Assembly (NCBI GenBank): GCA_919902445.1 | Contig: CAKKQZ010000011.1 | Location: forward strand, 12,783-56,638 | DNA length: 43,856 bases | Reading direction: 5' to 3' | DNA from: Omnitrophica bacterium GWA2_41_15 | Lineage (GTDB): Bacteria; Omnitrophota; Gorgyraeia; Gygaellales; Profunditerraquicolaceae | In this document: positions 11,607 to 41,281 of the stretch, piece by piece | How the letters are laid out: each line of letters begins with the position of its first letter | Position numbering within the stretch: position 1 is the stretch's first letter | Translations under genes and position numbers: made by a program | Notes under the pieces: generated by a model | What the model was told of the DNA's origin: nothing | What the model saw: only the letters and a program-made list of their open reading frames with translations | The model's database searches: none

Positions 11607-12194
11607 GTGAATTTTGCCAATAAAATTTCTACATTTAGAATTTTAAGCGTTCCTTTTTTTATAGCATGCCTAATCTATTATTCTCCCGAAAGGACTTATT
11701 TTAGATTTCTTGCTCTGTTTATATTTATTTTGGGTGTTATCTCTGATGCTGTTGACGGATATATAGCAAGGAAATCAAAACAGCAGTCAAAAGCCGGGCT
11801 TGTCTTAGACCCTTTAGGAGATAAGTTACTGCTTATGAGCGCTTACATTTTTCTTTCTCAGCTTTCGCAGTTCCCTTTGAAGTTTCCGCTTTGGGTTATT
11901 TTTATAATCATAAGCAGGGATGCGATTATTCTTATGGGTACGGTGGTGATTTACATGGTAAAGCAGAATATTGAGATTTATCCTACGCGCTGGGGGAAAG
12001 TTACAACTGCGTTGCAGATGCTTTCAGTGATACTGGTTCTTCTTCAATTCAAACTATCATTTATATCCTGGTGGCTGGCGGTTATATTTACGGTTATTTC
12101 AGGTATAGATTATATAAAGAGAGGATTTAAGACGCTTTATCCCGCCTTCGCAGAAGACCACCCCGCCGGCGAGAGTGGATGTCCGCCACAATAA
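11607..12194 (+). CDS. CDP-alcohol phosphatidyltransferase (PgsA-like); C-terminal tail is repeat-derived
   Basis: SDAVDGYIAR...G..LDPLGDK motif and several TM segments. Confidence 0.88.
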   Translation: MNFANKISTFRILSVPFFIACLIYYSPERTYFRFLALFIFILGVISDAVDGYIARKSKQQSKAGLVLDPLGDKLLLMSAYIFLSQLSQFPLKFPLWVIFIIISRDAIILMGTVVIYMVKQNIEIYPTRWGKVTTALQMLSVILVLLQFKLSFISWWLAVIFTVISGIDYIKRGFKTLYPAFAEDHPAGESGCPPQ

Positions 12195-12255
12195 GTGGCG
12201 GACCCGCCATGAATTATGGCGGGTACATAAAGGTACTACGGGCATGCCCGTGGGG
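12136..12255 (+). repeat. Family C composite palindromic repeat, copy 1
   Basis: Shares TTTATCCC-CCTTCGCA-AAGACCAC, ATGTCCGCCACAATA-GTGG-GGA-CCGCCATGAATTATGGC and GGGCA-GCCCGTGGGG blocks with 26525-26663. Confidence 0.85.
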
Positions 12256-19877: not shown

Positions 19878-19946
19878 TTAATGAGTGCATAACTTACGGA
19901 GTACTCGCTTGCGCTCGTTACGACGTAAGTTATTTGCACGAATTAA
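19878..19946 (-). repeat. Family A hairpin repeat, copy A1
   Basis: GTGCATAACTTAC...GTAAGTTATTTGCAC with TTAA at both ends; core almost identical in reverse complement to 27148-27202. Confidence 0.9.
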
Positions 19947-19983: not shown

Positions 19984-20032
19984 GCATAACTTACAAACAC
20001 GTTTAGTGTGAGTAAGTTATCTGCGCGAATTA
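19984..20032 (-). repeat. Family A hairpin repeat, copy A2
   Basis: GCATAACTTAC...GTAAGTTATCTGCGCGAATTA. Confidence 0.9.
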
Positions 20033-20607: not shown

Positions 20608-22047
20608 ATGGAACTTTATAAATTAACCGCTCACGAACTTATCAAAAAATTAAAAAATAAAGAAACCTCTGCGCAAGAGATTTTATCTTCACTAACAATA
20701 AGGATTAAAGAAATAGATTCAAAAGTTAACGGCTATGTCAGGCGCTCGAAAGAAAATATGGACAGTCCCCTCGTTCGCTCCGAGAACGATTCTCACTCGG
20801 GGACAGTCCCTATTTCGGTTAAGGACAATATCTGCACAGAAGGCCTTAATACCGAATGTTGCTCCAAAATATTAGGCGGGTTCAATCCTCCTTACGACGC
20901 TACTGTAATCAAAAAATTAAAAGAGGCAGGCATGCCGATATTTGGCTTAAAGACCAATATGGATGAGTTTGCCTTTGGTTCATCTACTGAAAACTCTTCC
21001 TTCGGCCCTACCCATAATCCATGGAATCTGGAGTGTGTCCCCGGAGGCTCCTCAGGAGGTTCTGCAGCAGTAGTCTCAGCTGATGAAGCGATATGGGCAT
21101 TAGGCTCTGATACAGGAGGTTCTATCCGCCAGCCGGCAGCATTTTGCGGGGTTGTGGGCTTAAAACCTACTTACGGAAGGGTCTCTCGTTATGGTTTAAT
21201 TGCCTTTGCATCAAGCCTTGACCAGATCGGGCCCATTACCAAGGATGTGGAGGATTGCGCTCTATTGATGAATATTATCAGCGGTTATGACCCTAATGAT
21301 TCAACATCCTCAGATACCGATGTCCCTGATTATGCAAAAGCACTGGTAAATGATGTAAAAGGGATAAAAATAGGAATTCCAAAAGAATACTTTGTTCAAG
21401 GGCTAGACCCGGAGGTTAAGTCAATAATAGAAGAAGCTATAAATAAGTTAAAAACCCTTGGGGCTTCATCCAAAGAAGTATCTTTACCCCACACGCAATA
21501 CGCCGTTCCCGTATATTATATTATTGCAACGGCTGAGGCAAGTTCAAATCTTGCAAGATTTGACGGAGTGCAATACGGTTTCAGGTCTGGAGGGCTAACC
21601 CTCATTGAGATGTATAAAAAAACGCGCCAAGAAGGATTTGGCGAGGAAGCAAAAAGAAGGATTATATTAGGGGCTTTTTCCTTGTCACACGGCTATTACG
21701 ACGCATATTATTTACGCGCCTTAAAGGTCCGTACTCTCATAAAACAGGATTTTGACGCGGTCTTTAAAGATTTCGATTGTATTATTACCCCTACCTCTCC
21801 AACTGCGGCATTTAAAATCGGAGAAAAAGTGGCTGATCCTTTAAAAATGTATCTTTCTGATATTTACACGATATCCGTAAACCTGGCGGGGTTACCCGCG
21901 GTATCTATCCCATGCGGTTTTACTAAAAAAGGTTTACCCGTAGGATTACAAATTTTGGCCAAACCTTTTAACGAAGAAATGCTTTTCAGGGTTGCCCATA
22001 CTTATGAGGAAAATAGCGAATGGCATAAAATGAAGCCGAAGGTTTAA
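20608..22047 (+). CDS. gatA: Asp/Glu-tRNA amidotransferase subunit A
   Basis: [38 protein letters not shown]. Confidence 0.97.
20760..20810. repeat. Family B doublet inside gatA
   Basis: GGACAGTCCCC ... GGGGACAGTCCC within the coding sequence. Confidence 0.75.
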
Positions 22048-26543: not shown

Positions 26544-26663
26544 GACCACGTGTATGTATGTGTATGTCCGCCACAATACGTGGAGGATCCGCCATGAATT
26601 ATGGCTGAAATGCGAAGAAAGAGCTGCTTCGGGGGATGTCACTGGATGGGCAAGCCCGTGGGG
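26525..26663 (+). repeat. Family C composite palindromic repeat, copy 2
   Basis: Same ordered blocks as 12136-12255; overlaps the tsaD stop codon. Confidence 0.85.
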
Positions 26664-26699: not shown

Positions 26700-27158
26700 G
26701 TGATCGATATGCTTAGCGACGCTCAGATTATCTTTCGTTTAATTTTAAGCGTATTCTTAAGCGGATTAATAGGCCTTGAGCGCCAAATGCATAAGCGCAC
26801 AGCAGGCCTGCGCACCCACATATTAGTATCTATGGGTTCCTGTCTTATCATGTTGACATCCTTCTATGTTTTTGATATATATAAAGATAAAGCTTCCATA
26901 GACCCTGCGCGGATAGCAGCCGGAGTAATCACGGGTATAGGTTTCTTAGGGGCGGGCGCAATTATCAGGGACAGAGCAGAAGTAAAAGGTTTGACTACGG
27001 CGGCCAGTCTTTGGGTTGTTGCAGGCATAGGTTTAGCTGTGGGGTGCGGTTTTAGCAAGGCAGCTATATATTCAACTGTATTAACACTAATAATCCTTTT
27101 CCTTTTAAGGCGGCTGGAAAGCATTATATTTTTTGAAGATAAGGATACGCGCAGATAA
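26700..27158 (+). CDS. MgtC/SapB family membrane protein
   Basis: IGLER, AGLRTH, DPARIAA.VITGIGFLGAG, GLTTAA; start may be ATG 26709. Confidence 0.92.
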   Translation: MIDMLSDAQIIFRLILSVFLSGLIGLERQMHKRTAGLRTHILVSMGSCLIMLTSFYVFDIYKDKASIDPARIAAGVITGIGFLGAGAIIRDRAEVKGLTTAASLWVVAGIGLAVGCGFSKAAIYSTVLTLIILFLLRRLESIIFFEDKDTRR

Positions 27159-27202
27159 CTTACGTCGTAACGAGCGTAAGCGAGTACTCCGTAAGTTATG
27201 CG
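27148..27202 (+). repeat. Family A hairpin repeat, copy A3
   Basis: CGCGCAGATAACTTAC...GTAAGTTATGCG; contains the mgtC-like stop codon. Confidence 0.9.
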
Positions 27203-27259
27203 GTTGAACCTATCCTTGATACGAAACGACGACATTTGAATTTGAATCTTACGTATCAA

Positions 27260-27321
27260 GGATTAATTCACACATTGACTTACTCATACTGGCGTATTCG
27301 TAAGTCAAGTGTTCATTAAGG
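27260..27321 (+). repeat. Family A variant, copy A4 (exact 62-bp duplicate of 32976-33037)
   Basis: GGATTAATTCACACATTGACTTACTCATACTGGCGTATTCGTAAGTCAAGTGTTCATTAAGG at both sites. Confidence 0.95.
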
Positions 27322-27330
27322 AGGTGTGGC

Positions 27331-27834
27331 ATGGCCTTTAAAAAGAAGGTTGAGGAAAAGATTCTTGACGTCGATGCTTCCATGCAGGGGAGCCTCATTT
27401 TTAAGGACCCGGTAAACTTGCGCATCAACGGAAAATTCGAAGGTAATTTAGAAACCAAGGGCAATTTGACAGTTGGTTCAACTGCCGTGATATCCGCTGA
27501 TATCATAGGTGATAATATTATAGTCGGCGGAAAAGTCAAGGGAAGGATTACCGCTAAGGAAAGGCTGACGCTTTTGCCTTCGGCAGTTGTAGAGGGGTCG
27601 ATTTATCCTGCGAGATTAAATATTGCTGAAGGAGCTATCCTTGAAGGCAATTGCTATATGCTCCATGATTTTTTAAATGCCGAAGAACTTGCACGCTATC
27701 TTGAGGTTGACTTAAATTCTATTATGGAATGGGCTAATTCTGGGAAGATGCCCGGTCAAAAGGAAGGTAGCGACTGGAGATTTGAGAGGAAGGCGATTGA
27801 TTCCTGGGTTGCGTCGGGTAAGATCGAAAGATAA
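27331..27834 (+). CDS. Bactofilin (polymer-forming cytoskeletal) domain fused to a C-terminal excisionase-like HTH
   Basis: Beta-helix pattern LRINGKFEGNL...IIVGGKVKGRI...LNIAEGAILEGNC, then FLNAEELARYLEV...WANSGKMPGQK.G..WRF. Confidence 0.88.
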   Translation: MAFKKKVEEKILDVDASMQGSLIFKDPVNLRINGKFEGNLETKGNLTVGSTAVISADIIGDNIIVGGKVKGRITAKERLTLLPSAVVEGSIYPARLNIAEGAILEGNCYMLHDFLNAEELARYLEVDLNSIMEWANSGKMPGQKEGSDWRFERKAIDSWVASGKIER

Positions 27835-27842
27835 AACAACCC

Positions 27843-28154
27843 ATGGCTGAAGAAAAACTTTTGACGGTAAGGGAAGTAGCTTCATTATTGGGGGTATCGG
27901 AAAAAGAAGTGGTTGATTTAGCTGAAAGCGGCGCTATTCCGGCGTACAAAGTCGGCGGTGTATACTTAAGGTTTAAAAGGGAGCAGGTTAAGAATTTAAG
28001 AAAGTACAGCCGCGCTCCGGCTGCTAAGGTTGTGGCTAAGCAAAAAGCTTCATTTAAGGACCGGGTTAGTGACTTTTTCTATTTCAACGATTTTTATATA
28101 TTGGCAGGGATGTTGATAATTTTGCTTTTGTTAATCATATTCCAGGGAAATTAA
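27843..28154 (+). CDS. Excisionase-like HTH protein with C-terminal transmembrane anchor
   Basis: LLTVREVASLLGVS...GAIPAYKVGG..LRF at the N-terminus; hydrophobic ILAGMLIILLLLIIF at the C-terminus. Confidence 0.85.
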   Translation: MAEEKLLTVREVASLLGVSEKEVVDLAESGAIPAYKVGGVYLRFKREQVKNLRKYSRAPAAKVVAKQKASFKDRVSDFFYFNDFYILAGMLIILLLLIIFQGN

Positions 28155-28158
28155 GATA

Positions 28159-28830
28159 ATGGTTTTAAAATCTAAGTTTTGCGACTTAGGGTTTGCCAAA
28201 GTCGATATAGATAGAAAAAAACGAAGGGGCTTTGCAGAAGCAATATATTCTCCCGGAAAATCTAGGGAGCACTTAAAGAAGATATCCCGGGAATTAATTA
28301 AAAATAAACAGGATTTACTTTTAACTAGGTTAGATAAAAATACCTTTTCTTACCTAAAGAAATCAATCCCCGGATTAAAATACAATCCAAAAGCACGATT
28401 GGGATTCCTCATACAAAATGGAAGGGTTGTCGGCAAGGGCGTATCATTGGTGATTTGCGCGGGGACATCTGACATACCTGTGGCTGAGGAAGCAGCCGCT
28501 GTCCTTGAAGTAATGGGGAATAAAGTGGTCAGGCTTTTTGACGTAGGAGTGGCAGGGGTTCATCGCATAATGCAAAAAATTGAGGTTTTAAAGAAAGCAA
28601 AGGTGATTGTGGTAGTCGCCGGCATGGAGGGGGCATTGGCAAGTTTAGTGAGCGGGCTAGTCAGTTGTCCGGTTATTGCCGTTCCGACCAGCTGCGGTTA
28701 CGGCGCTAATTTTGGCGGGCTCTCGGCGCTATTAACCATGTTAAATAGTTGTTCTCCGGGGGTAGCAGTGGTAAATATCGATAATGGTTTTGGCGCGGGA
28801 TATTTCGCGAGCCTTGTTAACCGGCCATAA
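28159..28830 (+). CDS. larB: Nickel-pincer cofactor biosynthesis protein LarB
   Basis: FAKVD.DR..R.G, AGTSDIPVAEEA, DVGVAG.HR, VAGMEGAL, VNIDNGFGA. Confidence 0.92.
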   Translation: MVLKSKFCDLGFAKVDIDRKKRRGFAEAIYSPGKSREHLKKISRELIKNKQDLLLTRLDKNTFSYLKKSIPGLKYNPKARLGFLIQNGRVVGKGVSLVICAGTSDIPVAEEAAAVLEVMGNKVVRLFDVGVAGVHRIMQKIEVLKKAKVIVVVAGMEGALASLVSGLVSCPVIAVPTSCGYGANFGGLSALLTMLNSCSPGVAVVNIDNGFGAGYFASLVNRP

Positions 28831-28870
28831 GTTGTAAGCGGCTTAACCCTTGGGCCATAAGTTAAGAGCT

Positions 28871-29284
28871 ATGAAGATAAATTTAAAAGAGGCAATAAAA
28901 TTCCACGGCCATCTAGGGCCGTATCTTGTTTTGGGGCTTTTAGCGGGAGAAACAGCCCTTAAAAAATTAAAGTCAAAAAAATATTTCGGATTAAAGGTCA
29001 GTGTGTGGGGAGCAAATAAAAAGCCGAAATCCTGCCTCGTAGATGGTTTGCAATTATCTACAGGCGCAACCTACGGAAAAGGAAATATCCATAAATATAA
29101 TAGCAGGATAATTAAGATTTTATTTTTCGATAAGAACCGTAACAGGAGGCTAACTATTGCGTTAAAAAAAGATTTGATTTTTAAATTGAATACTTTAAAA
29201 GGACATAGGGACTCTGAGGCCTTTGCCAAAAAACTCTATAACCTAAAGCCTTTAAAAGTTTTTGACTTACAATCCATAACTTAA
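28871..29284 (+). CDS. FmdE family protein
   Basis: FHGHLGPYLVLG and C..DGLQ.STGAT.GKGN; ATG 28871 preferred over TTG 28850. Confidence 0.85.
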   Translation: MKINLKEAIKFHGHLGPYLVLGLLAGETALKKLKSKKYFGLKVSVWGANKKPKSCLVDGLQLSTGATYGKGNIHKYNSRIIKILFFDKNRNRRLTIALKKDLIFKLNTLKGHRDSEAFAKKLYNLKPLKVFDLQSIT

Positions 29285-29306
29285 AACTTACTACTGGAGA
29301 AAAAAC

Positions 29307-30638
29307 ATGGCGCTTTCAGGATTGGATATTTACAAATTATTGCCCAAGACAAACTGCCGGGAATGCGGGTTCCCTACCTGCCTTGCCTTTGCCATGCAGC
29401 TTGCAAAAAAGGCAATAAGTATTGATAAATGCCCGTACCTTAGCCAGGAGGCAAAAAAGGTTTTAGAGGCATCAAGCCAGCCGCCTATAAAATTGGTGAC
29501 GGTCGGCGTGGGTGACTCGAGGTTAGAATTCGGTAATGAGACAGTGATGTTTCGCCATGAAGAAAAATTTTTTCATCCCTGCGGAATAGGTTTTATTATC
29601 GAAGATAATTTAAGCGACTCTGAGATTTCGCGAAAGCTCGAGAGGATAAATAAGTTAAAGTTTGAACGCGTAGGACAGAAGATAGAGGTGAATCTTGTGG
29701 CGGTCAGGCAAACCAATGACGGGCAAAGGTTCGTTGACGCGGTGCAGTTAGTTTCAAGCGGCACTTCCTTAGGCCTGGTATTAATGAGCGATGAACCGGA
29801 GGCTCTAAAATCAGCATTAGAAATTACAAGAACAAAAAGGCCGTTAATTTACCATGCCACAAAAAATAATTTAGCAGCAGTTGCGCAGGTGGCCAAGGAA
29901 TTTAATCTGCCGCTAGTTGTTTCTGGCCCTGATTTAGATACTCTCTCAAACCTGACAAAAGAGTTGAATAGCCTGGGCGTTGCCGAGTTAGTTTTAGAGA
30001 CAGAGAAAAAAAACGTTGCGGATAAAATCTGGGATTTAACCCAAATACGAAGGCAGGCATTAAGGAAGTCAAATCGGGCTTTGGGTTATCCTGTTTTGGT
30101 TTTAGTGGAAAATTCCGATCCTTACGAAGAGGCTGTCGAGGCCGCGACTTTTATTGCAAAGTACGCGAGTATGCTTTTGATGAAAGGGACTGAATCCTGG
30201 CAGGTTTTATCGCTTTTAACTTTAAGGCAGAATATTTACACTGACCCGCAGAAACCCTTACAGATGGAGGCAAAGCTTTATGCTATTGGACAGGTAACCG
30301 ATAAATCTCCTGTGCTGGTTACAACTAATTTTTCTTTAAGCTACTACACTGTTTTAGGGGAAGTGGAGGCAAGTAAGATTCCAGCTTACATAGTTAGCGT
30401 AGATACAGAAGGTATGTCCGTATTGACTGCGTGGGCTGCTGAAAAGTTTACTCCGGATAAGATCACGGAGAATTTGGAAAAGTGCGAAGTAGCAAAGGCG
30501 GTTTCGCATAAACGGTTGATTATTCCCGGTTATGTTGCGGTTATGAGCGGCGATTTAGAAGAGAAATCCGGTTGGCAGGTCACTGTCGGGCCAAAAGAGG
30601 CTGCCGGGATACCCAGCTTCTTAAAGAATTTACAGTAG
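29307..30638 (+). CDS. acsC: Corrinoid iron-sulfur protein large (gamma) subunit
   Basis: LPKTNC.ECG.PTCLAFAM, LRQNIYTDPQKP, TTNFSL.Y, SVLTAWAA.KF. Confidence 0.95.
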   Translation: MALSGLDIYKLLPKTNCRECGFPTCLAFAMQLAKKAISIDKCPYLSQEAKKVLEASSQPPIKLVTVGVGDSRLEFGNETVMFRHEEKFFHPCGIGFIIEDNLSDSEISRKLERINKLKFERVGQKIEVNLVAVRQTNDGQRFVDAVQLVSSGTSLGLVLMSDEPEALKSALEITRTKRPLIYHATKNNLAAVAQVAKEFNLPLVVSGPDLDTLSNLTKELNSLGVAELVLETEKKNVADKIWDLTQIRRQALRKSNRALGYPVLVLVENSDPYEEAVEAATFIAKYASMLLMKGTESWQVLSLLTLRQNIYTDPQKPLQMEAKLYAIGQVTDKSPVLVTTNFSLSYYTVLGEVEASKIPAYIVSVDTEGMSVLTAWAAEKFTPDKITENLEKCEVAKAVSHKRLIIPGYVAVMSGDLEEKSGWQVTVGPKEAAGIPSFLKNLQ

Positions 30639-30700
30639 GAATTTCATAACGAAGAAAGTTCCTTTACAGCTTATCGCGGGATAGCTTTCGTCAAAGCTAC

Positions 30701-30752
30701 AGGGACTGTCCCCGTCAAAGCTATTGGTTGTATAACCAGAGGGACTGTCCCT
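30701..30752. repeat. Family B doublet
   Basis: AGGGACTGTCCCCGTCAAAGCTA...AGAGGGACTGTCCCT; matches 41224-41276. Confidence 0.85.
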
Positions 30753-30790
30753 GAACAGATTTAATGAAAACTGTCCCGACCAAATAAACA

Positions 30791-32719
30791 ATGGAAAAAT
30801 TCAAGATTAAATTTTATCCGGACAATAAGACAATCGAGGTTGAAAAGAGCAAGACTATTCTTTCAGCTGCGATATCCGCCGGGGTCTATATAAATTCCAG
30901 TTGCGGCGGCGACGGCGTTTGCGGAAGGTGTAAGGTGATTGTCAAGAAGGGTGAGGTTCTTACCCATCCCACCGGAAGAATAAGCCTGGATGAGAGGGCG
31001 CATGGAGTATATTTATCCTGCCTGACTACTGCGCAAAGCGATTTAGAGGTTGAAGTTCCTCCTGAGTCAAGATTGGATTTTGAGAAGTTATCTGCGCAGG
31101 AACTGGAGTTACGCCTTAAGGGGCTATACGAGGAATCCGAAGAAGTAGAGGAAGTGGTGCCTGTTAAGCCTGAAGAGATTTTTACCCACTCTCCTTTATC
31201 TACAAAATTATATTTGGAATTGCCAAAGCCCACCTTAAAAGATAATATCAGTGACCTTGAGCGGCTATACCGGGAAATAAGGCGTTTAAGCGATGTTCCC
31301 ATTATGCAGGCAGGGCTTGCCAATATTAGAAAACTGGGAGAGTTGCTGCGTGATTCTGATTGGAAAGTCACTGTTACTTTAGGAAAAAGAAATGAAACTG
31401 TTGAGATTGTTTTGGTTGAGCCGGGAGATACTCAAGCTAAAAATTTTGGCATGGCCTTTGATATAGGCACTACTACGATATCCGGGCAACTCGTGGATTT
31501 AAATAATAAAATGGTCTTGGGCACAAGGGCAACATATAATAAACAGGCAAGTTTCGGCAGCGACGTAATCACTCGTATAATCTATGCTCAGGAGGAGGAC
31601 GGTTTAGAAAAACTGCATCACGCGGTTATTGACACTATGAACCATATGATTCAGGATTTAATCCAGGAGTATAACGTTGATCTTAATGACGTAAACTGCT
31701 GTTTGTGCGCGGGAAATACTACTATGGCGCATCTTTTGCTTCGGGTCGACCCCACCTATATCAGAAGGGAGCCGTATGTTCCTACGGCAAATTTTGTGCC
31801 TGTTATACGCGCTGCAGAAGCAGGCATAAAGATAAATCCCCGCGGGCTTTTATCATGTGTTCCCGGAGTTTCCAGTTATGTGGGAGGAGATACTACCTCA
31901 GGAGTTTTATCGAGCGGCCAATATAAAGAAGGAGATTTAAGCATACTGATAGATGTCGGCACTAACGGAGAAATTGTACTTGGTAGTAAAGACTTCTTGG
32001 TAAGTTGCGCCGCTTCAGCAGGGCCTGCATTTGAAGGCAGCGGCGTTACCTGCGGCATGCGCTCGAGTAAAGGAGCGATACAAAAAGTAAAAATAGACCC
32101 TAAGGATTTTGATGTGGTATGCGATACTATCGGTGGGGCCCCAGCGCGCGGCATATGCGGTTCAGGTTATATTGATATCATCGCAGGGATGCTGAAAGTC
32201 GGTATTATCGATAAAAGCGGCAAGATTATAGCAGAAAATAAAAAACGTATCCGCGATAGCGACTTGGGGCGCGAATTTGTGCTTTATTTTAAAGAGCAGG
32301 CAGATTCAACGAGCGATATAGTCGTCAATGAGGCGGATATCGAAAATTTAAAACGCGCCAAAGGCGCAATTTATGCCGCGACTTCTATTTTAGTAAAGCA
32401 CATGGGCCTTGATTTTGCTTCGATAAAGAAATTCTTTATTGCCGGCGGATTCGGGACTTACCTTGATATTGAGAACGCTGTGCGCATCGGTTTATTGCCT
32501 GATTTAGAAAGGCAGAAATTTTCCTTTATCGGAAATAGTTCTCTGGCAGGCGCCAGGCAAATGCTTTTATCCTTTGAGGCAACAAAGATTGCTGAAACAA
32601 TTGCTAAAAAGATCACTTATTTTGAGCTTTCGGTAGACCCGGGCTACATGGATGAGTATATGGCGGCGCTTTTTTTCCCGCATACGGATTTGGAAAAATT
32701 CCCTTCATTAAAAGCTTGA
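30791..32719 (+). CDS. Reductive activator of corrinoid proteins (RACo/AcsV; 2Fe-2S plus ASKHA domains)
   Basis: CGG.G.CGRC, DIGTTT, GSDVITRI, D.GTNGEI, AGPAFEG, AGGFG. Confidence 0.92.
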   Translation: MEKFKIKFYPDNKTIEVEKSKTILSAAISAGVYINSSCGGDGVCGRCKVIVKKGEVLTHPTGRISLDERAHGVYLSCLTTAQSDLEVEVPPESRLDFEKLSAQELELRLKGLYEESEEVEEVVPVKPEEIFTHSPLSTKLYLELPKPTLKDNISDLERLYREIRRLSDVPIMQAGLANIRKLGELLRDSDWKVTVTLGKRNETVEIVLVEPGDTQAKNFGMAFDIGTTTISGQLVDLNNKMVLGTRATYNKQASFGSDVITRIIYAQEEDGLEKLHHAVIDTMNHMIQDLIQEYNVDLNDVNCCLCAGNTTMAHLLLRVDPTYIRREPYVPTANFVPVIRAAEAGIKINPRGLLSCVPGVSSYVGGDTTSGVLSSGQYKEGDLSILIDVGTNGEIVLGSKDFLVSCAASAGPAFEGSGVTCGMRSSKGAIQKVKIDPKDFDVVCDTIGGAPARGICGSGYIDIIAGMLKVGIIDKSGKIIAENKKRIRDSDLGREFVLYFKEQADSTSDIVVNEADIENLKRAKGAIYAATSILVKHMGLDFASIKKFFIAGGFGTYLDIENAVRIGLLPDLERQKFSFIGNSSLAGARQMLLSFEATKIAETIAKKITYFELSVDPGYMDEYMAALFFPHTDLEKFPSLKA

Positions 32720-32740
32720 ACAAGATAAGCACTGCACACA

Positions 32741-32837
32741 GGGACAGCCTTAAAACAGTTACGGGACACCTTCCATCAAAGCAATAAAAACAATAGCTCA
32801 ATGGAAAGTGTCCCGCCGATGAACAGGAGACTGTCCC
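32741..32837. repeat. Nested family B-related palindromes
   Basis: Outer GGGACAG/CTGTCCC and inner CGGGACAC..TCCAT/ATGGA..GTGTCCCG. Confidence 0.7.
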
Positions 32838-32869
32838 TCAATAATATAAGGGTTGCGGTGATAGATAAG

Positions 32870-32924
32870 TGAGGCCATAACTTATGGAGGCGTTTAGCCG
32901 ACATAAGTTATCTGGCCGAACTTA
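32870..32924 (-). repeat. Family A hairpin repeat, copy A5
   Basis: GGCCATAACTTAT...ATAAGTTATCTGGCCGAA, a compensatory variant. Confidence 0.85.
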
Positions 32925-32979
32925 TCCCGTTAGAAATTTTGCGTATTAATTATTGTCAATCTGGTATTTCTAACGGGAT
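32924..32979. repeat. ATCCCGTTAGAAAT inverted repeat between family A copies
   Basis: Perfect 14-bp arms ATCCCGTTAGAAAT/ATTTCTAACGGGAT. Confidence 0.8.
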
Positions 32980-33037
32980 TAATTCACACATTGACTTACT
33001 CATACTGGCGTATTCGTAAGTCAAGTGTTCATTAAGG
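32976..33037 (+). repeat. Family A variant, copy A6 (exact duplicate of 27260-27321)
   Basis: 62 identical bases ending in the acsD RBS region. Confidence 0.95.
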
Positions 33038-33044
33038 GGTTGAT

Positions 33045-34034
33045 ATGGAATTGGCATTGGAGAAGTGGTCAGGGAGCGTTGCAGAGGTTTCTGTTGGTGC
33101 CACTAAAGATGAGGGGGGCACGCGTGCAAAGTCGATTAAGATAGGGGGGCATAAAACTCTGCCTCTTTTATTTAAAGAGAGCGCAATCCCTAATAGGCCG
33201 GTGGTAGCCTTTGAGGTCTGGGATATTGCGCCGACTGAATGGCCGGAAGAATTAATTAAGTCATATGGCGATAAATTAAAAGACCCTGTTGCCTGGGCTG
33301 ATTTTTGCGTGAAAGAATATAAGGCGCAGGTTTTGTGCATAAAGCTTCAGGGATCGCATCCTGATTTTGGGAATAAAACCCCTGATGAGGAAGCAAAGCT
33401 AATAGGCAAAATATTAAAGAGAGTGGATGTCCCTTTGGTAATATTAGGGAGCGGAGACGACTCAAAAGATAATTTGGTTTTGCCTGCAGCAAGCGAAGCG
33501 GCAAAGGGTGAGCGCGCCCTGGTAGGAGACGCGGTTCAGGACAATTATAAGACGCTTGTTGCCGCGGTCCTTGCCGATGGACATAATATTATCGCCGAGT
33601 CTCCGATAGATATAAATATTGCCAAGCAGTTAAATATATTGATTTCAGATATGGGCCTATCTTTAGAGCGTATTGTTATTAATCCGACTATCGGGGCTTT
33701 GGGGTATGGTTTGGAATATGCTTATTCTATTATGGAGCGCGCTCGCCTAGCCGCATTATCAGGGGATAAAACAGTAGCCAATCCTTTTGTATGTTTTGTG
33801 GGGCATGAAGCCTGGAGGGCAAAAGAGGCAAAGGCGAAAATAGCGGAATTTCCCTCATGGGGCCCTGAGCCTGAACGCGGCATAATCTGGGAGGTGATCA
33901 CAGCGGCCGCATTGATACAGTCAGGAGGAGACCTTTTGATTATGCGCCATCCTAAAGCGGTTGAAAAGGTAAATAAATATATAGATGAATTATTTAGGGA
34001 CGCTTCTCAAGTCAGCTATAAGGTGTCCCCTTAA
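33045..34034 (+). CDS. acsD: Corrinoid iron-sulfur protein small (delta) subunit
   Basis: GG...LP, SPIDINIAKQLNILI, ALGYGLEY.YS.MER.RLAAL.GD, MRHP. Confidence 0.94.
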   Translation: MELALEKWSGSVAEVSVGATKDEGGTRAKSIKIGGHKTLPLLFKESAIPNRPVVAFEVWDIAPTEWPEELIKSYGDKLKDPVAWADFCVKEYKAQVLCIKLQGSHPDFGNKTPDEEAKLIGKILKRVDVPLVILGSGDDSKDNLVLPAASEAAKGERALVGDAVQDNYKTLVAAVLADGHNIIAESPIDINIAKQLNILISDMGLSLERIVINPTIGALGYGLEYAYSIMERARLAALSGDKTVANPFVCFVGHEAWRAKEAKAKIAEFPSWGPEPERGIIWEVITAAALIQSGGDLLIMRHPKAVEKVNKYIDELFRDASQVSYKVSP

Positions 34035-34072
34035 ATGGGGACAGTTTATATTCAACTTAAGAAACGTCCCTA
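33995..34072. repeat. Nested family B-related palindromes overlapping the acsD stop
   Basis: Outer TAGGGACG/CGTCCCTA and inner TGTCCCC-TTAAAT-GGGGACA. Confidence 0.75.
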
Positions 34073-34086
34073 ATTGGAGGTGAGGT

Positions 34087-34875
34087 TTGTTTATTATAGG
34101 TGAATTGATCAACGGGATGTATGCAAATATTGGCAAAGCAATCAGAGAAAAAAATAAAGCGGAAATTCAAAAGTGCGCCCTGGAGCAGATAAAGTGTGGG
34201 GCAGACGCCTTGGATGTTAACTGCGGCCCCGCTTCAAAAGAGCCGATTACTGATATTCAGTGGTTGGTCGAAGCAATTCAGGAGGTAACCGATGTGCCGA
34301 TATCTTTGGACTCCAGTAAGCCACAGGTCATTGAGTCTGGGCTCAAGGCAGCAAGGAATAAAGTAATTATTAATTCTGTAACCGCAGACCCTGACAAATT
34401 GGATATATTGGTACCTATGGCAAAGCAGCATAATGCTAAACTCATTGCTTTGACTATAAGCGCAAAGGGCATTCCTAAAGATAAGGATCAGCGTTTGGAA
34501 TTGGCTGCTACTATTGTAGCGGACTGTATTGATAAGGGCTTTCCCGTTGAGGATTTGTTCCTTGACCCTATAGTGCTTCCGCTGAATGTTGCACAGGCGC
34601 AGATGAAGGATATTTTAGAATCCATACATGAATTTAAAATTATTTCTGACCCTAGCCCAAAGACGATTGTTGGTTTAAGTAATGTCTCACAGGGGACAAA
34701 TGCCAGAAGCTTAGTTAACCGCACCTTTTTGACCATGGCAGCGGCATATGGACTTGATGCCGCAATATTGGACCCTTTAGATAAGGATTTAATGGACGCG
34801 CAGATTACCGCCGAGTTAATCTTAAATAAACATATCTACTGCGATTCGTTTCTCTACGCTTATAGAAAGAAATAA
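34087..34875 (+). CDS. acsE: Methyltetrahydrofolate:corrinoid methyltransferase
   Basis: IIGELING, GADALDVN, INS, GLSNVS, GLDAAI.DP; lies in the acs cluster; TTG start behind GGAGG. Confidence 0.9.
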   Translation: MFIIGELINGMYANIGKAIREKNKAEIQKCALEQIKCGADALDVNCGPASKEPITDIQWLVEAIQEVTDVPISLDSSKPQVIESGLKAARNKVIINSVTADPDKLDILVPMAKQHNAKLIALTISAKGIPKDKDQRLELAATIVADCIDKGFPVEDLFLDPIVLPLNVAQAQMKDILESIHEFKIISDPSPKTIVGLSNVSQGTNARSLVNRTFLTMAAAYGLDAAILDPLDKDLMDAQITAELILNKHIYCDSFLYAYRKK

Positions 34876-36404: not shown

Positions 36405-36463
36405 TAGGGACAGCGACTATTTTTTCTGCGTATATTTACCTGAAAAAATAGTCGCTGTCCCTA
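36405..36463. repeat. Long perfect inverted repeat in the ftsH leader (family B-related ends)
   Basis: TAGGGACAGCGACTATTTTTTC / GAAAAAATAGTCGCTGTCCCTA. Confidence 0.9.
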
Positions 36464-40318: not shown

Positions 40319-40448
40319 AGAAAAAGCCAGTATTGTTTACAGGGTTAGGCATTTGTTTATTTATCATCCCTGGCTAAAAATCCTCGCTTTAATACTGGCG
40401 ATTATAGTATGGCATTATGCCAGTGATGAGATAAGCAGGTTTAACTAA
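40311..40448 (+). CDS. 45-aa membrane peptide resembling the CdaR (YbbR) N-terminal TM segment only
   Basis: Not in the ORF track; translates to MIKEKASIVYRVRHLFIYHPWLKILALILAIIVWHYASDEISRFN; overlaps the cdaA stop by 8 nt. Confidence 0.7.
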   Translation: MIKEKASIVYRVRHLFIYHPWLKILALILAIIVWHYASDEISRFN

Positions 40449-40502
40449 TTCGCGCAGATAACTTACTCGCACTGTCGTGTTCGTAAGTTATGCGCTCATT
40501 AA
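40446..40502 (+). repeat. Family A hairpin repeat, copy A7
   Basis: TAATTCGCGCAGATAACTTACTC...TCGTAAGTTATGCGCTCATTAA. Confidence 0.9.
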
Positions 40503-40504
40503 AT

Positions 40505-41281
40505 ATGCCGAAATTAGGGGTAAACATAGACCATGTTGCCACTTTAAGGCAGGTTCGCCAGGGGATAGAGCCGGAGCCGGTATTGGCTGCATTAATCTGC
40601 GAGGCATCAGGCGCTGACGGGATAGTGGTGCATTTAAGGGAGGACCGCCGCCACGTTCAGGATAACGACGTTTATATTTTAAAAAAGTGCGTGAAGACAA
40701 AATTAAATCTAGAGATGTCTGTTGTTCCTGAGATTGTAAGGATAGCCTGCAAAGTAAAACCGGATCAGGCAACATTGGTGCCTGAGCGAAGGCAGGAATT
40801 AACTACAGAGGGTGGTTTGGATGTAGCTGCTAATTTCAAGAGAGTAAAACAGGCAGTAGAAAGATTGCACGAAAGCGGAATAAGGGTGAGTTTATTTATT
40901 GATCCCGATGAAAAACAGATAGATGCATCAAAAAAGTCCGGGGTTGGGATGATAGAATTGCATACCGGACGCTACGGCGATGCTAAAGGTAAGAAAAAGC
41001 AGGATAAATATTTTAAAGAACTTCAAAATGCAGCCGCCTTTGCTATAAACAAAGGCTTGATTGTAAACGCCGGGCATGGGTTGGATTATTATAATGTGGC
41101 GAGGGTTGCGAGAATCAAAGGTATAGAGGAATTGAATATCGGTTATTCCATTGTCTGCCGCGCTGTATTAGTAGGTTTAAGCAGGGCAGTAAAAGAGATG
41201 AAGGAATTGATTAGCACTGCAGTAGGGACTGTCCCCGTCAGAGCTAAGGCTACGCCTCGCAAGAGGGACTGTCTCTACTAA
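40505..41281 (+). CDS. pdxJ: Pyridoxine 5'-phosphate synthase; C-terminal tail is repeat-derived
   Basis: LGVNIDHVATLR, HLREDRRH, TTEGGL, IELHTG, AGHGL; start set at ATG 40505. Confidence 0.96.
   Translation: MPKLGVNIDHVATLRQVRQGIEPEPVLAALICEASGADGIVVHLREDRRHVQDNDVYILKKCVKTKLNLEMSVVPEIVRIACKVKPDQATLVPERRQELTTEGGLDVAANFKRVKQAVERLHESGIRVSLFIDPDEKQIDASKKSGVGMIELHTGRYGDAKGKKKQDKYFKELQNAAAFAINKGLIVNAGHGLDYYNVARVARIKGIEELNIGYSIVCRAVLVGLSRAVKEMKELISTAVGTVPVRAKATPRKRDCLY
41224..41276. repeat. Family B doublet in the pdxJ 3' end
   Basis: AGGGACTGTCCCCGTCAGAGCTA...AGAGGGACTGTCTCT. Confidence 0.85.

Follow-up and report, generated by a model that had tools for sequence, protein, structure and literature searches.

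A near-universal Omnitrophota gene pair encoding a bactofilin–winged-helix fusion and a tail-anchored winged-helix protein: a possible membrane-bound scaffold and its receptor

Two adjacent genes in a 43,856-nucleotide (nt) stretch of the genome of Omnitrophica bacterium GWA2_41_15 (the whole stretch analyzed, hereafter the window) encode a bactofilin with a C-terminal winged helix (gene 1, BAC-wH; positions 27331–27834, forward strand, 167 residues) and a small tail-anchored winged-helix protein (gene 2, HTM; positions 27843–28154, same strand, 103 residues). They represent, in this genome, a pair found almost universally among Omnitrophota. Our tentative explanation is that BAC-wH forms a bactofilin scaffold bound to the membrane and that HTM is its dedicated tail-anchored receptor, the two being joined winged helix to winged helix; we put the chance that this is right at not quite even. 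The explanation accounts for the fusion, for the paralogy and charge pattern of the two winged-helix heads, and for genes that are strictly adjacent, with gene 1 depending on gene 2 but not the reverse. An earlier reading, made from the sequence alone and without database searches (the sequence-only reading), had proposed a two-gene system in which a filament displays DNA-binding heads and a membrane partner co-assembles with it; the two-gene system is borne out by the results below, and the DNA-binding heads are not supported as they were described.

The open reading frame of gene 1 begins 8 nt after an AAGGAGG ribosome-binding site, and its product has two recognizable domains. Residues 11–108 (27361–27654) match Bactofilin PF04519 (E 5.1e-24; 84.8 bits against a Pfam gathering score of 27.9) and residues 114–163 (27670–27819) match the helix–turn–helix (HTH) family HTH_17 PF12728 (E 1.6e-10; 41.5 bits against 27); the protein also scores above the cut-off of the NCBIfam ‘excise’ model TIGR01764 (29.8 bits, cut-off 28.8). 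An AlphaFold2 model built from a 70-row ortholog alignment has a mean predicted local distance difference test score (pLDDT) of 83.8 and shows a disordered tail at residues 1–9 (27331–27357; pLDDT <50), a β-helix at residues 11–108 (pLDDT 88–97) and a β-α-α-β-β-α winged helix at residues 114–161. Foldseek places the modeled β-helix close to BacA (2n3d; target TM-score, TMt, 0.75) and to a Thermus bactofilin (6rib; TMt 0.78). The head matches RdfS, BldC, Xis, RacA, MerR-family proteins and CbpM, and superimposes on winged HTH (wHTH) domains of the BldC/RdfS/Xis type with a root-mean-square deviation of 1.5–2.5 Å across ∼50 residues. Pfam, NCBIfam, AlphaFold2 and Foldseek therefore agree with the sequence-only reading that gene 1 is a complete bactofilin β-helix followed by an excisionase/MerR-like HTH.

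To describe conservation we used 70 loci, made up of the window's own, 29 from the same family and 40 chosen to spread over other families and classes. Features expected of a polymerizing bactofilin are retained throughout this set. Leu104 of gene 1 aligns with the polymerization residues Phe130 of BacA and Phe105 of the Thermus thermophilus protein, and its column is hydrophobic in all 70 orthologs (35 Leu, 27 Phe, 5 Ile, 2 Val and 1 Met). The glycine ladder of the β-helix is invariant, as are L124, P141 and W159 in the head, where E125 and an acidic residue at position 127 are each found in 67 of 70. The N-terminal tail is a candidate membrane-targeting peptide that resembles the published bactofilin consensus MFSKKKK, as given in the available text of PMC12448750; it generally starts with Met and a small residue, in many cases continues with a hydrophobic one, and then has Lys or Arg. 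The MAFKKK start singled out by the sequence-only reading is indeed present in gene 1, but it characterizes only the family to which the window belongs: Phe occupies position 3 in 36 orthologs, 18 have no residue there at all, and proteins from other classes begin with MAKKK or MGRK.

Gene 2 follows gene 1 after a gap of 8 nt (27835–27842) and was identified from its open reading frame, Pfam match and AlphaFold2 model. Its residues 6–49 match HTH_17 (E 1.2e-10; 41.9 bits against 27), and it scores 45 bits against TIGR01764. The model (mean pLDDT 74.9) comprises a wHTH at residues 6–56 (27858–28010), also recognizable by homology to the gene 1 head; a flexible linker at residues 57–70 (28011–28052) that is disordered, with pLDDT <50, at residues 58–68; a juxtamembrane aromatic helix with the motif D-F-x-Y-F-N-D-F-Y at residues 71–82 (28053–28088), helical over residues 71–81 and kinked at N82; and a C-terminal transmembrane (TM) helix at residues 83–102 (28089–28148). 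Block-mean pLDDT values over residues 81–103 are 88, 94 and 75. The hydrophobic maximum (Kyte–Doolittle 3.11 over 17 residues) begins at residue 84 and leaves three residues to the end of the protein. Across the 70 orthologs this maximum lies between 2.3 and 3.7 and is followed by 0–9 residues, so that every one is a predicted tail-anchored protein. Pfam, the model and hydrophobicity are in accord with the earlier description of gene 2 as carrying the same type of HTH and a single C-terminal TM helix.

The juxtamembrane motif is the most conserved stretch of gene 2 outside the head. A regular expression located it in 68 of 70 orthologs and it was visible in every tail inspected; counts by residue are D77 67, F78 66, F81 64, N82 59, D83 59, F84 68 and Y85 70. 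The linker, measured from residue 56 to the motif in those 68 proteins, varies from 12 to 51 residues. Its basic character, noted by the sequence-only reading, holds for this genome (+5 across 21 residues) but is not conserved, with a median charge of +1 and a range of −10 to +7 over the 70 orthologs. R43, in the wing of the head, is invariant.

Homolog searches indicate that both architectures recur. A search with gene 1 gives 2562 homologs at E ≤ 1e-3; all of the best 120 have both domains, a length of 166–173 residues and 81–97% identity. Gene 2 has 1270 homologs. The close homologs come from metagenome-assembled genomes of Candidatus Omnitrophota or Omnitrophica and are named by their sources either ‘polymer-forming cytoskeletal protein’ or ‘excisionase family DNA binding protein’. 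ESM Atlas clusters bearing both Pfam families are likewise from Omnitrophota, and a search of 1.84 billion cluster representatives returned 21 at E ≤ 1e-30 and about 25 full-length fusions, the remainder being fragments or plain bactofilins. Given these numbers of homologs, the architecture of both genes is, on sequence grounds, far beyond chance. Within the window's own genome (1.29 Mb, 94.6% complete) gene 1 is the sole bactofilin, and genes 1 and 2 account for two of five HTH_17 matches. Among the distant matches of the gene 1 search are a bactofilin–PilZ fusion (P0276) and, listed with it, proteins of three to seven tandem HTH_17 domains (P0307, P0387, P0390 and P0316); such arrays fit the idea of this winged helix acting in head-to-tail rows.

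We next consider how the two genes are distributed. Presence was scored in 301 genomes sampled across Omnitrophota, 248 of them of high quality, at E ≤ 1.4e-26 for full-length gene 1 and E ≤ 1e-12 for the gene 2 profile, and adjacency was scored with hidden Markov models built from the homolog matches of each gene. Gene 1 has matches at E ≤ 1e-3 in 292 genomes, but 26 of these are weak and partial (6.2e-11 to 8.3e-4), leaving 266 with a full-length copy. Gene 2 is present in 281 genomes, including 239 of the 248 of high quality, as a single match per genome except for two in G016. Both genes occur in 266 genomes, gene 2 alone in 15, gene 1 alone in none and neither in 20; all 20 genomes that are negative for gene 2 fall among the 35 that lack full-length gene 1, and 32 of those 35 have no bactofilin domain anywhere. 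One bactofilin match, in G043, was rejected as a gene 1 ortholog on account of its hydrophobic N-terminus and weak β-helix match. At all 70 loci gene 2 lies directly 3′ of gene 1 on the same strand. The arrangement extends to a second phylum, represented by three genomes in the collection, where the fusion is found in two (one being P0273, 39% identical) with an HTH-plus-TM gene directly downstream of it in both. The combined PF04519 and PF12728 architecture and the conservation of its neighborhood, proposed as a check by the sequence-only reading, thus favor its view that the genes form a two-gene system.

The genomes with gene 2 only show that the dependence runs in one direction. In at least 12 genomes, from six families (G015, G033, G163, G226, G273, G087, G109, G093, G063, G047, G287 and G018), gene 1 has been cleanly lost while gene 2 is kept in an intact syntenic slot, in the order TsaD > MgtC > gene 2 or TsaD > gene 2; the gene 2 of G018 has diverged (E 7e-12). 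The neighbors were confirmed with Pfam at loci L100, L105, L106 and L108, and the other loci were checked only for the absence of a gene 1-like reading frame. Four of the 15 genomes scored as having gene 2 only (G173, G131, G124 and G300) have it at the start of a contig, where gene 1 is perhaps unassembled. Because related genomes are not independent, we base no statistical claim on this distribution; nevertheless, gene 1 has disappeared at least six separate times while gene 2 stayed, with no example of the reverse, and the pattern is clear. Retention of gene 2 after these losses implies that it has a role of its own, and the nested presence of gene 1 is what would be expected if BAC-wH acts through HTM. 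One fusion-less genus (L100–L102; G015, G163 and G033) also has a longer MgtC neighbor, 223 residues against ∼150 in the window, and a 132-residue gene 2 product with a longer linker.

The heads of the two proteins are paralogous to one another (probability 97.3% in hhalign, 25% identity), and a comparison with BldC bears on what they might bind. BldC chains 6ama and 6amk align to the gene 2 profile with no gaps; their numbering runs 3 ahead of that in the paper, and BldC residue n corresponds to gene 2 residue n−5, an offset inferred from the residues named in the available text of PMC5859096. According to that text, BldC contacts DNA through Lys26, Thr27, Arg30, Lys33, Arg47 and Arg48; Thr27 and Lys33 contact phosphates, while Arg30 reads bases and its replacement by Ala abolishes binding. 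The position of Arg30 is D25 in gene 2, acidic in 47 of 70 orthologs and Lys or Arg in 13, and E133 in gene 1, acidic in 63 of 70. Gene 2 is also acidic at the positions of Thr27 (56/70) and Lys33 (46/70), and retains only the Arg48 position (R43, 70/70) and K21 (46/70). The profile alignment of the 70 orthologs thus finds the BldC-type set of DNA-contacting residues in neither head.

The charge of the heads follows the same lines. Of the 70 orthologs of each gene, 67 for gene 1 and 58 for gene 2 have a net negative helix 2, which in gene 1 is never positive. The wing of gene 2 (residues 33–47) is net positive in all 70, and of the two heads only that of gene 2 has a basic wing. At three positions gene 1 has gained acidic residues relative to gene 2: E125 against G17, D/E127 against S/T19 and E/D152 against K/R45. 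The last 55 residues of gene 1, comprising the head, have a median net charge of −2 and an isoelectric point (pI) of 4.9 across the 70 orthologs. We set whole-domain charge aside as proof against DNA binding, since with the pI of the HTM head spanning 4.5 to 10.3 it is suggestive only. The ‘DNA-binding heads’ of the sequence-only reading are therefore unsupported as written: judged from these alignments, neither head is likely to read specific sequences in the major groove as BldC or RacA does, although the wing of gene 2 may make non-specific contacts with DNA. It is more likely that both heads are protein-docking modules than that they are sequence-reading DNA binders. Three named HTH subfamilies scored below their cut-offs: BldC (NF033787; 14.8 and 24.7 bits against 77), the MADS1 anti-phage HTH (NF047737; 44.2 and 42.6 against 80) and MamR (NF040990; 25.3 against 100). 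All three were rejected on score as identities for the heads; the pair sits in a housekeeping context, with no defense or magnetosome island.

BldC protomers meet head to tail, with Phe21, Val23 and Trp31 facing Ile40′, Thr42′, Leu43′ and Gly44′ (PMC5859096, in the available text). The corresponding positions of BAC-wH are L124 (70/70), V/I/L126 (70/70) and W134 (62/70), and those of HTM are L16 (68/70), I/V/L18 (67/70), L26 (61/70), Y35 (65/70), I/V/L37 (70/70) and G39 (62/70). A head-to-tail contact between the two heads is therefore structurally plausible as far as aligned sequences can tell. The scaffold–receptor explanation is supported because these hydrophobic positions are kept and the charges of BAC-wH helix 2 and the HTM wing are complementary, and because gene 1 retains the Pfam score, fold and hydrophobic polymerization position of a bactofilin.

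The mechanism that we propose starts from the domain architectures, predicted folds, head homology, charge patterns, adjacency and nested presence and absence described above. HTM would be inserted in the cytoplasmic membrane by its C-terminal helix, placing its conserved aromatic helix at the membrane surface and its winged helix in the cytoplasm on a flexible tether. BAC-wH would polymerize through the ends of its β-helix, as other bactofilins do, and so display a row of winged helices. Each of these would dock one HTM winged helix, probably head to tail in the manner of BldC protomers, so that the basic HTM wing would face the acidic surface formed by helices 1 and 2 of BAC-wH, and docking would both fasten the polymer to the membrane and cluster HTM. 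There are precedents for the component interactions. The bitopic membrane client PbpC binds BacA and can stand in for its membrane-targeting peptide (PMC12448750), and BacR, an HTH protein whose gene adjoins those of bactofilins, binds them close to its HTH (PMC13649987), both as described in the portions of those papers at hand.

Several points weigh against this explanation. HTM persists without BAC-wH in at least 12 genomes, so anchoring a bactofilin cannot be its only function. The winged helix of BAC-wH begins only ∼5 residues past the β-helix in the window's own family, and in the model it could cap the C-terminal polymerization face and give short rods, not filaments. The MAFKKK N-terminus of that family could by itself bind the membrane without a partner. 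HTM also has features that suit contact with nucleic acid, namely the invariant R43 opposite BldC Arg48, basic residues at positions 36 and 45, a canonical L-G-V-S turn in most orthologs (G17 in 42/70, S/T19 in 49/70) and the +5 linker seen here, and the nearest structural matches of the head (RdfS, BldC, Xis and RacA) are all DNA binders. Moreover, the mapping onto BldC depends on profile alignments at ∼25% identity and on the inferred numbering offset. A complex prediction for full-length gene 1 and gene 2 from 70-row alignments of each scored 0.20 against a mark of 0.32, and is evidence neither way.

The surroundings of the pair differ between classes. Upstream lies a gene for an MgtC-family membrane protein (26700–27158, forward strand; PF02308, E 1.3e-42), found in this place at 50 of 70 loci, and downstream a gene for a LarB-like aminoimidazole ribonucleotide (AIR) carboxylase (28159–28830, forward strand; PF00731), found at 38 of 70, whose start is 4 nt past the gene 2 stop. 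Neither belongs to the pair. Throughout the window's class the pair is embedded in a housekeeping string that reads S41 peptidase > polysaccharide deacetylase > TsaD > MgtC > pair > LarB > LarC or FmdE, whereas in other classes the flanks differ (YdjC, ACPS) and the pair stays intact. On the 3′ side in the window are LarB-like and FmdE-like genes (28159–29284), followed by genes at 29307–34875 that were read from their translations, without a family search, as Wood–Ljungdahl corrinoid/acetyl-CoA synthase genes. LarB and LarC lie 3′ of the pair in other genomes, and carbon-fixation neighbors only in this lineage.

Two dispersed repeats make up the 172-nt spacer 5′ of gene 1. The first, a 67-nt hairpin leader (27260–27326, forward strand), ends at the ribosome-binding site and has a 97% identical copy at 32976–33042; the window's own genome contains 19 matches to it at E ≤ 1e-3 (74–100% identity), some of which lie 5′ of rpsM, rplN, pfkA, lpxD, an acsD-like gene (33045), a membrane protein gene and a gene for a lysine-rich protein, all as read from their first residues. 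The leader looks like a portable promoter or leader module. Among those loci of other genomes that were compared by blastn, it was found solely in L019, 5′ of MgtC. Behind one copy (L091, G000:C1) is a 131-residue protein with an extremely lysine/alanine-rich N-terminus that resembles histone H1- or HU-like nucleoid proteins. The other repeat resembles repetitive extragenic palindromic (REP) elements and lies in the mgtC–bactofilin spacer (27145–27201, forward strand), with an inverted copy, 93% complementary, at 19887–19943; it recurs across the genome, with 8 matches at E ≤ 1e-9 and numerous partial ones of 19 nt. Its core, ATAACTTACG...CGTAAGTTAT, occurs in intergenic spacers at 27145–27201, 19887–19943, 20005–20032 and 40446–40503.

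Further repeats are scattered through the window. Short palindromes of a second family, based on GGGACAGTCCC or GGGACTGTCCC, lie at 1649–1668, 20800–20819, 30701–30760, 36405–36463 and 41216–41246, the copy at 36405–36463 being a perfect 22-nt inverted repeat, and a 46-nt direct repeat (12175–12220 and 26560–26605, 91% identical) has its second copy in the tsaD–mgtC spacer. Because the repeats upstream of the pair are dispersed, they are not specific operators of it. The suggestion that the upstream hairpins or the ‘family A’ repeats are the DNA target of the heads was set aside, as both upstream elements are dispersed repeats that front unrelated genes. A scan for promoters and terminators over 27050–29400 was uninformative, giving six promoter-like sites, none in the leader, against 4.7 ± 2.5 in shuffled sequences.

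The complement of division genes provides a further context. Searches with the tubulin/FtsZ family PF00091 found it in 0 of 121 Omnitrophota genomes (117 of high quality), while the same search was positive in 13 of 14 controls, and FtsZ_C gave no match in the window's own genome. The division cluster of that genome (contig C9:1–6000, locus L098) reads ddl > ftsQ > ftsA, followed directly by a YggS-like gene and proC, with no ftsZ; MreB, ParB and a RodZ_C protein are present. FtsA without FtsZ would be unusual, and with ParB and MreB present and FtsZ not found, the coordination of nucleoid and division must be organized unusually. The literature on this point is mixed. A 2016 survey reports FtsZ in one of three ‘Omnitrophica’ genomes (PMC5147048, in the text available), and the accessible part of a 2025 paper states that genes of the division and cell wall (dcw) cluster are highly conserved in Ca. 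Omnitrophota (PMC12283558), the figures and supplements of which may bear on the matter.

We weighed other explanations against these results. The tether of the sequence-only reading, in which the winged helix and basic linker of HTM bind the chromosome, the BAC-wH polymer adds DNA-binding heads and the nucleoid is anchored or organized at the membrane as by RacA, RocS or RicO, is possible but rather unlikely. It draws on the excisionase/MerR wHTH fold of the heads, whose nearest solved structures are DNA-bound (BldC 6ama, RacA 5i44, RdfS 8dgl and Xis 4j2n), on the HTM wing, which is basic in every ortholog and carries R43, and on the +5 linker of this genome. HTM outlives the bactofilin, as expected of a self-sufficient DNA–membrane tether; RocS and RicO, by the published accounts at hand, are membrane-anchored HTH proteins that link DNA to the membrane, and the presence of ParB and MreB in a phylum where FtsZ was not found would suit such a role. 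The residues that should touch DNA nonetheless speak against it, with helix 2 net acidic in most orthologs of both proteins, acidic residues prevailing at the BldC Arg30 position in both heads and at the Thr27 and Lys33 positions in HTM, an acidic BAC-wH head, an HTM head with no consistent pI and a linker charge that is not conserved.

Missing DNA-reading residues also count against the idea that the pair is a regulatory partner switch of the BacR type, in which the heads control transcription, for example by operon autoregulation, and the polymer and membrane sequester them from DNA. BacR (YhbD) of Bacillota is located at the membrane when bactofilins are made and otherwise at the nucleoid (PMC13649987, in its available text), and the pair does head a tightly packed string of genes with larB 4 nt behind it. 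However, neither a head fused to the polymer nor one anchored across the membrane can change place unless it is cut by a protease, the analysis turned up no conserved operator, the hairpin leader is a dispersed repeat common to unrelated genes, and neither protein matches DUF4004 at E ≤ 0.1; we consider a switch of this kind improbable. Equally little credence attaches to the two genes being conserved neighbors without physical contact, the bactofilin head binding a third partner and an unrelated small membrane protein being co-inherited in the operon. The long syntenic string of the window's class and the lineages in which HTM functions without BAC-wH would fit this, but the genes stay adjacent in other classes and in a second phylum, where the flanks have been replaced entirely, their heads are paralogous to each other, and BAC-wH never occurs without HTM in the 301 genomes. 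Finally, the pair could be a membrane-bound polymer system that took over part of the scaffolding of FtsZ, marking or constricting the division site or coupling the nucleoid to it, with the winged helices as a new kind of connector from polymer to membrane and from polymer to client and FtsA, FtsQ, MreB, RodZ and ParB all present; we regard this as quite doubtful.

Bactofilins are widespread, yet few of their clients and modes of anchoring are known, and here a folded domain is built onto the polymer and accompanied by a dedicated partner gene. Full-text literature searches found no published description of a bactofilin–winged-helix fusion, as the sequence-only reading had supposed when it knew of no system with this architecture, although the supplements of the PMC12448750 survey might list such architectures; the word ‘bactofilin’ occurs 0 times in the available text of the main Omnitrophota genomics paper (PMC10066038). 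The pair is conserved about as well as core enzymes throughout an uncultured phylum of very small cells. On our scaffold–receptor explanation, a winged helix of the excisionase/MerR type, for which ‘DNA-binding’ is the usual annotation, would have been put to use here in connecting proteins. If so, it would caution against the automatic annotation ‘excisionase family DNA binding protein’. If the absence of FtsZ holds, the pair is an obvious candidate component in the division of these bacteria.

Among known systems, the layout of HTM recalls that of RodZ with MreB. RodZ is a bitopic protein whose cytoplasmic HTH binds a cytoskeletal polymer and not DNA; a juxtamembrane segment and one TM helix come after it. 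The HTH of RodZ is of the XRE type, and the protein carries a periplasmic RodZ_C domain. HTM ends 0–9 residues past its TM helix, and it was rejected as a replacement for RodZ because the window's own genome has a separate RodZ_C protein along with MreB. HTM likewise shares an N-terminal wHTH and a C-terminal membrane attachment with RacA of Bacillus subtilis, RocS of Streptococcus pneumoniae and RicO of Staphylococcus aureus. As far as the excerpted descriptions go, these proteins bind DNA, are anchored by an amphipathic helix or by DivIVA and have no bactofilin partner, whereas HTM uses a TM helix; RacA uses an Arg equivalent to BldC Arg30 (PMC5859096, in the text at hand), the position that is acidic here. 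BldC, RdfS and Xis (6ama, 8dgl and 4j2n) share with the heads their fold, the HTH_17 family and the hydrophobic positions of the head-to-tail interface (PMC5859096), but the heads are acidic at the positions of Arg30, Thr27 and Lys33 and are tethered to a polymer or a membrane. A bactofilin of Chlamydia trachomatis is, by the title of a preprint (bioRxiv 10.1101/2020.10.19.346502), critical for cell size and shape. Its phylum lacks FtsZ and is grouped with Omnitrophica in the Planctomycetes–Verrucomicrobia–Chlamydiae (PVC) superphylum (PMC5147048, in the portion available); the start of the preprint's abstract mentions neither a fused wHTH nor a tail-anchored partner, and the likeness to the pair is by description only.

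Bactofilin systems with partner proteins offer closer comparisons, cited here from the available portions of the papers. Myxococcus xanthus links its BacNOP polymer to the segregation machinery, ParA and ParB, through the adaptor PadC, which acts on a C-terminal region and whose gene is clustered with the bactofilin genes (PMC5703909). That adaptor is ParB-like and sits on the disordered tail of BacP, with no fusion or membrane anchor described; unlike in the BacNOP cluster, no ParA or ParB gene adjoins the pair, and the ParB of the window's own genome is on another contig. BacR (YhbD)/Cap0037, which works with BacE and BacF in Bacillota, is like the pair in that an HTH gene adjoins bactofilin genes and its product associates with the membrane and physically binds bactofilins near its HTH (PMC13649987). 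In contrast, BacR is soluble, separate, encoded upstream and able to move to the nucleoid, and belongs to the DUF4004 family, whereas in the pair one head is part of the polymer-forming protein, the other is held in place by a membrane anchor and the HTH gene lies downstream. With BacA and PbpC of Caulobacter crescentus, the cytoplasmic part of a bitopic client binds the polymer, and membrane binding and polymerization support each other (PMC12448750); PbpC is a large cell-wall synthase that binds by a disordered tail, while HTM is a protein of 100 residues with a folded head and no periplasmic domain. Canonical bactofilins themselves (BacA 2n3d; Thermus thermophilus 6ria/6rib; PF04519) are like gene 1 in their β-helix, fold, hydrophobic polymerization position and short basic N-terminal tail. 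They differ in that the N-terminal Phe of the consensus is found in only about half of the gene 1 orthologs (36/70), and in that, where canonical proteins end in a disordered tail, the β-helix of gene 1 leads straight into a folded winged helix and is accompanied by an obligatory tail-anchored partner encoded downstream.

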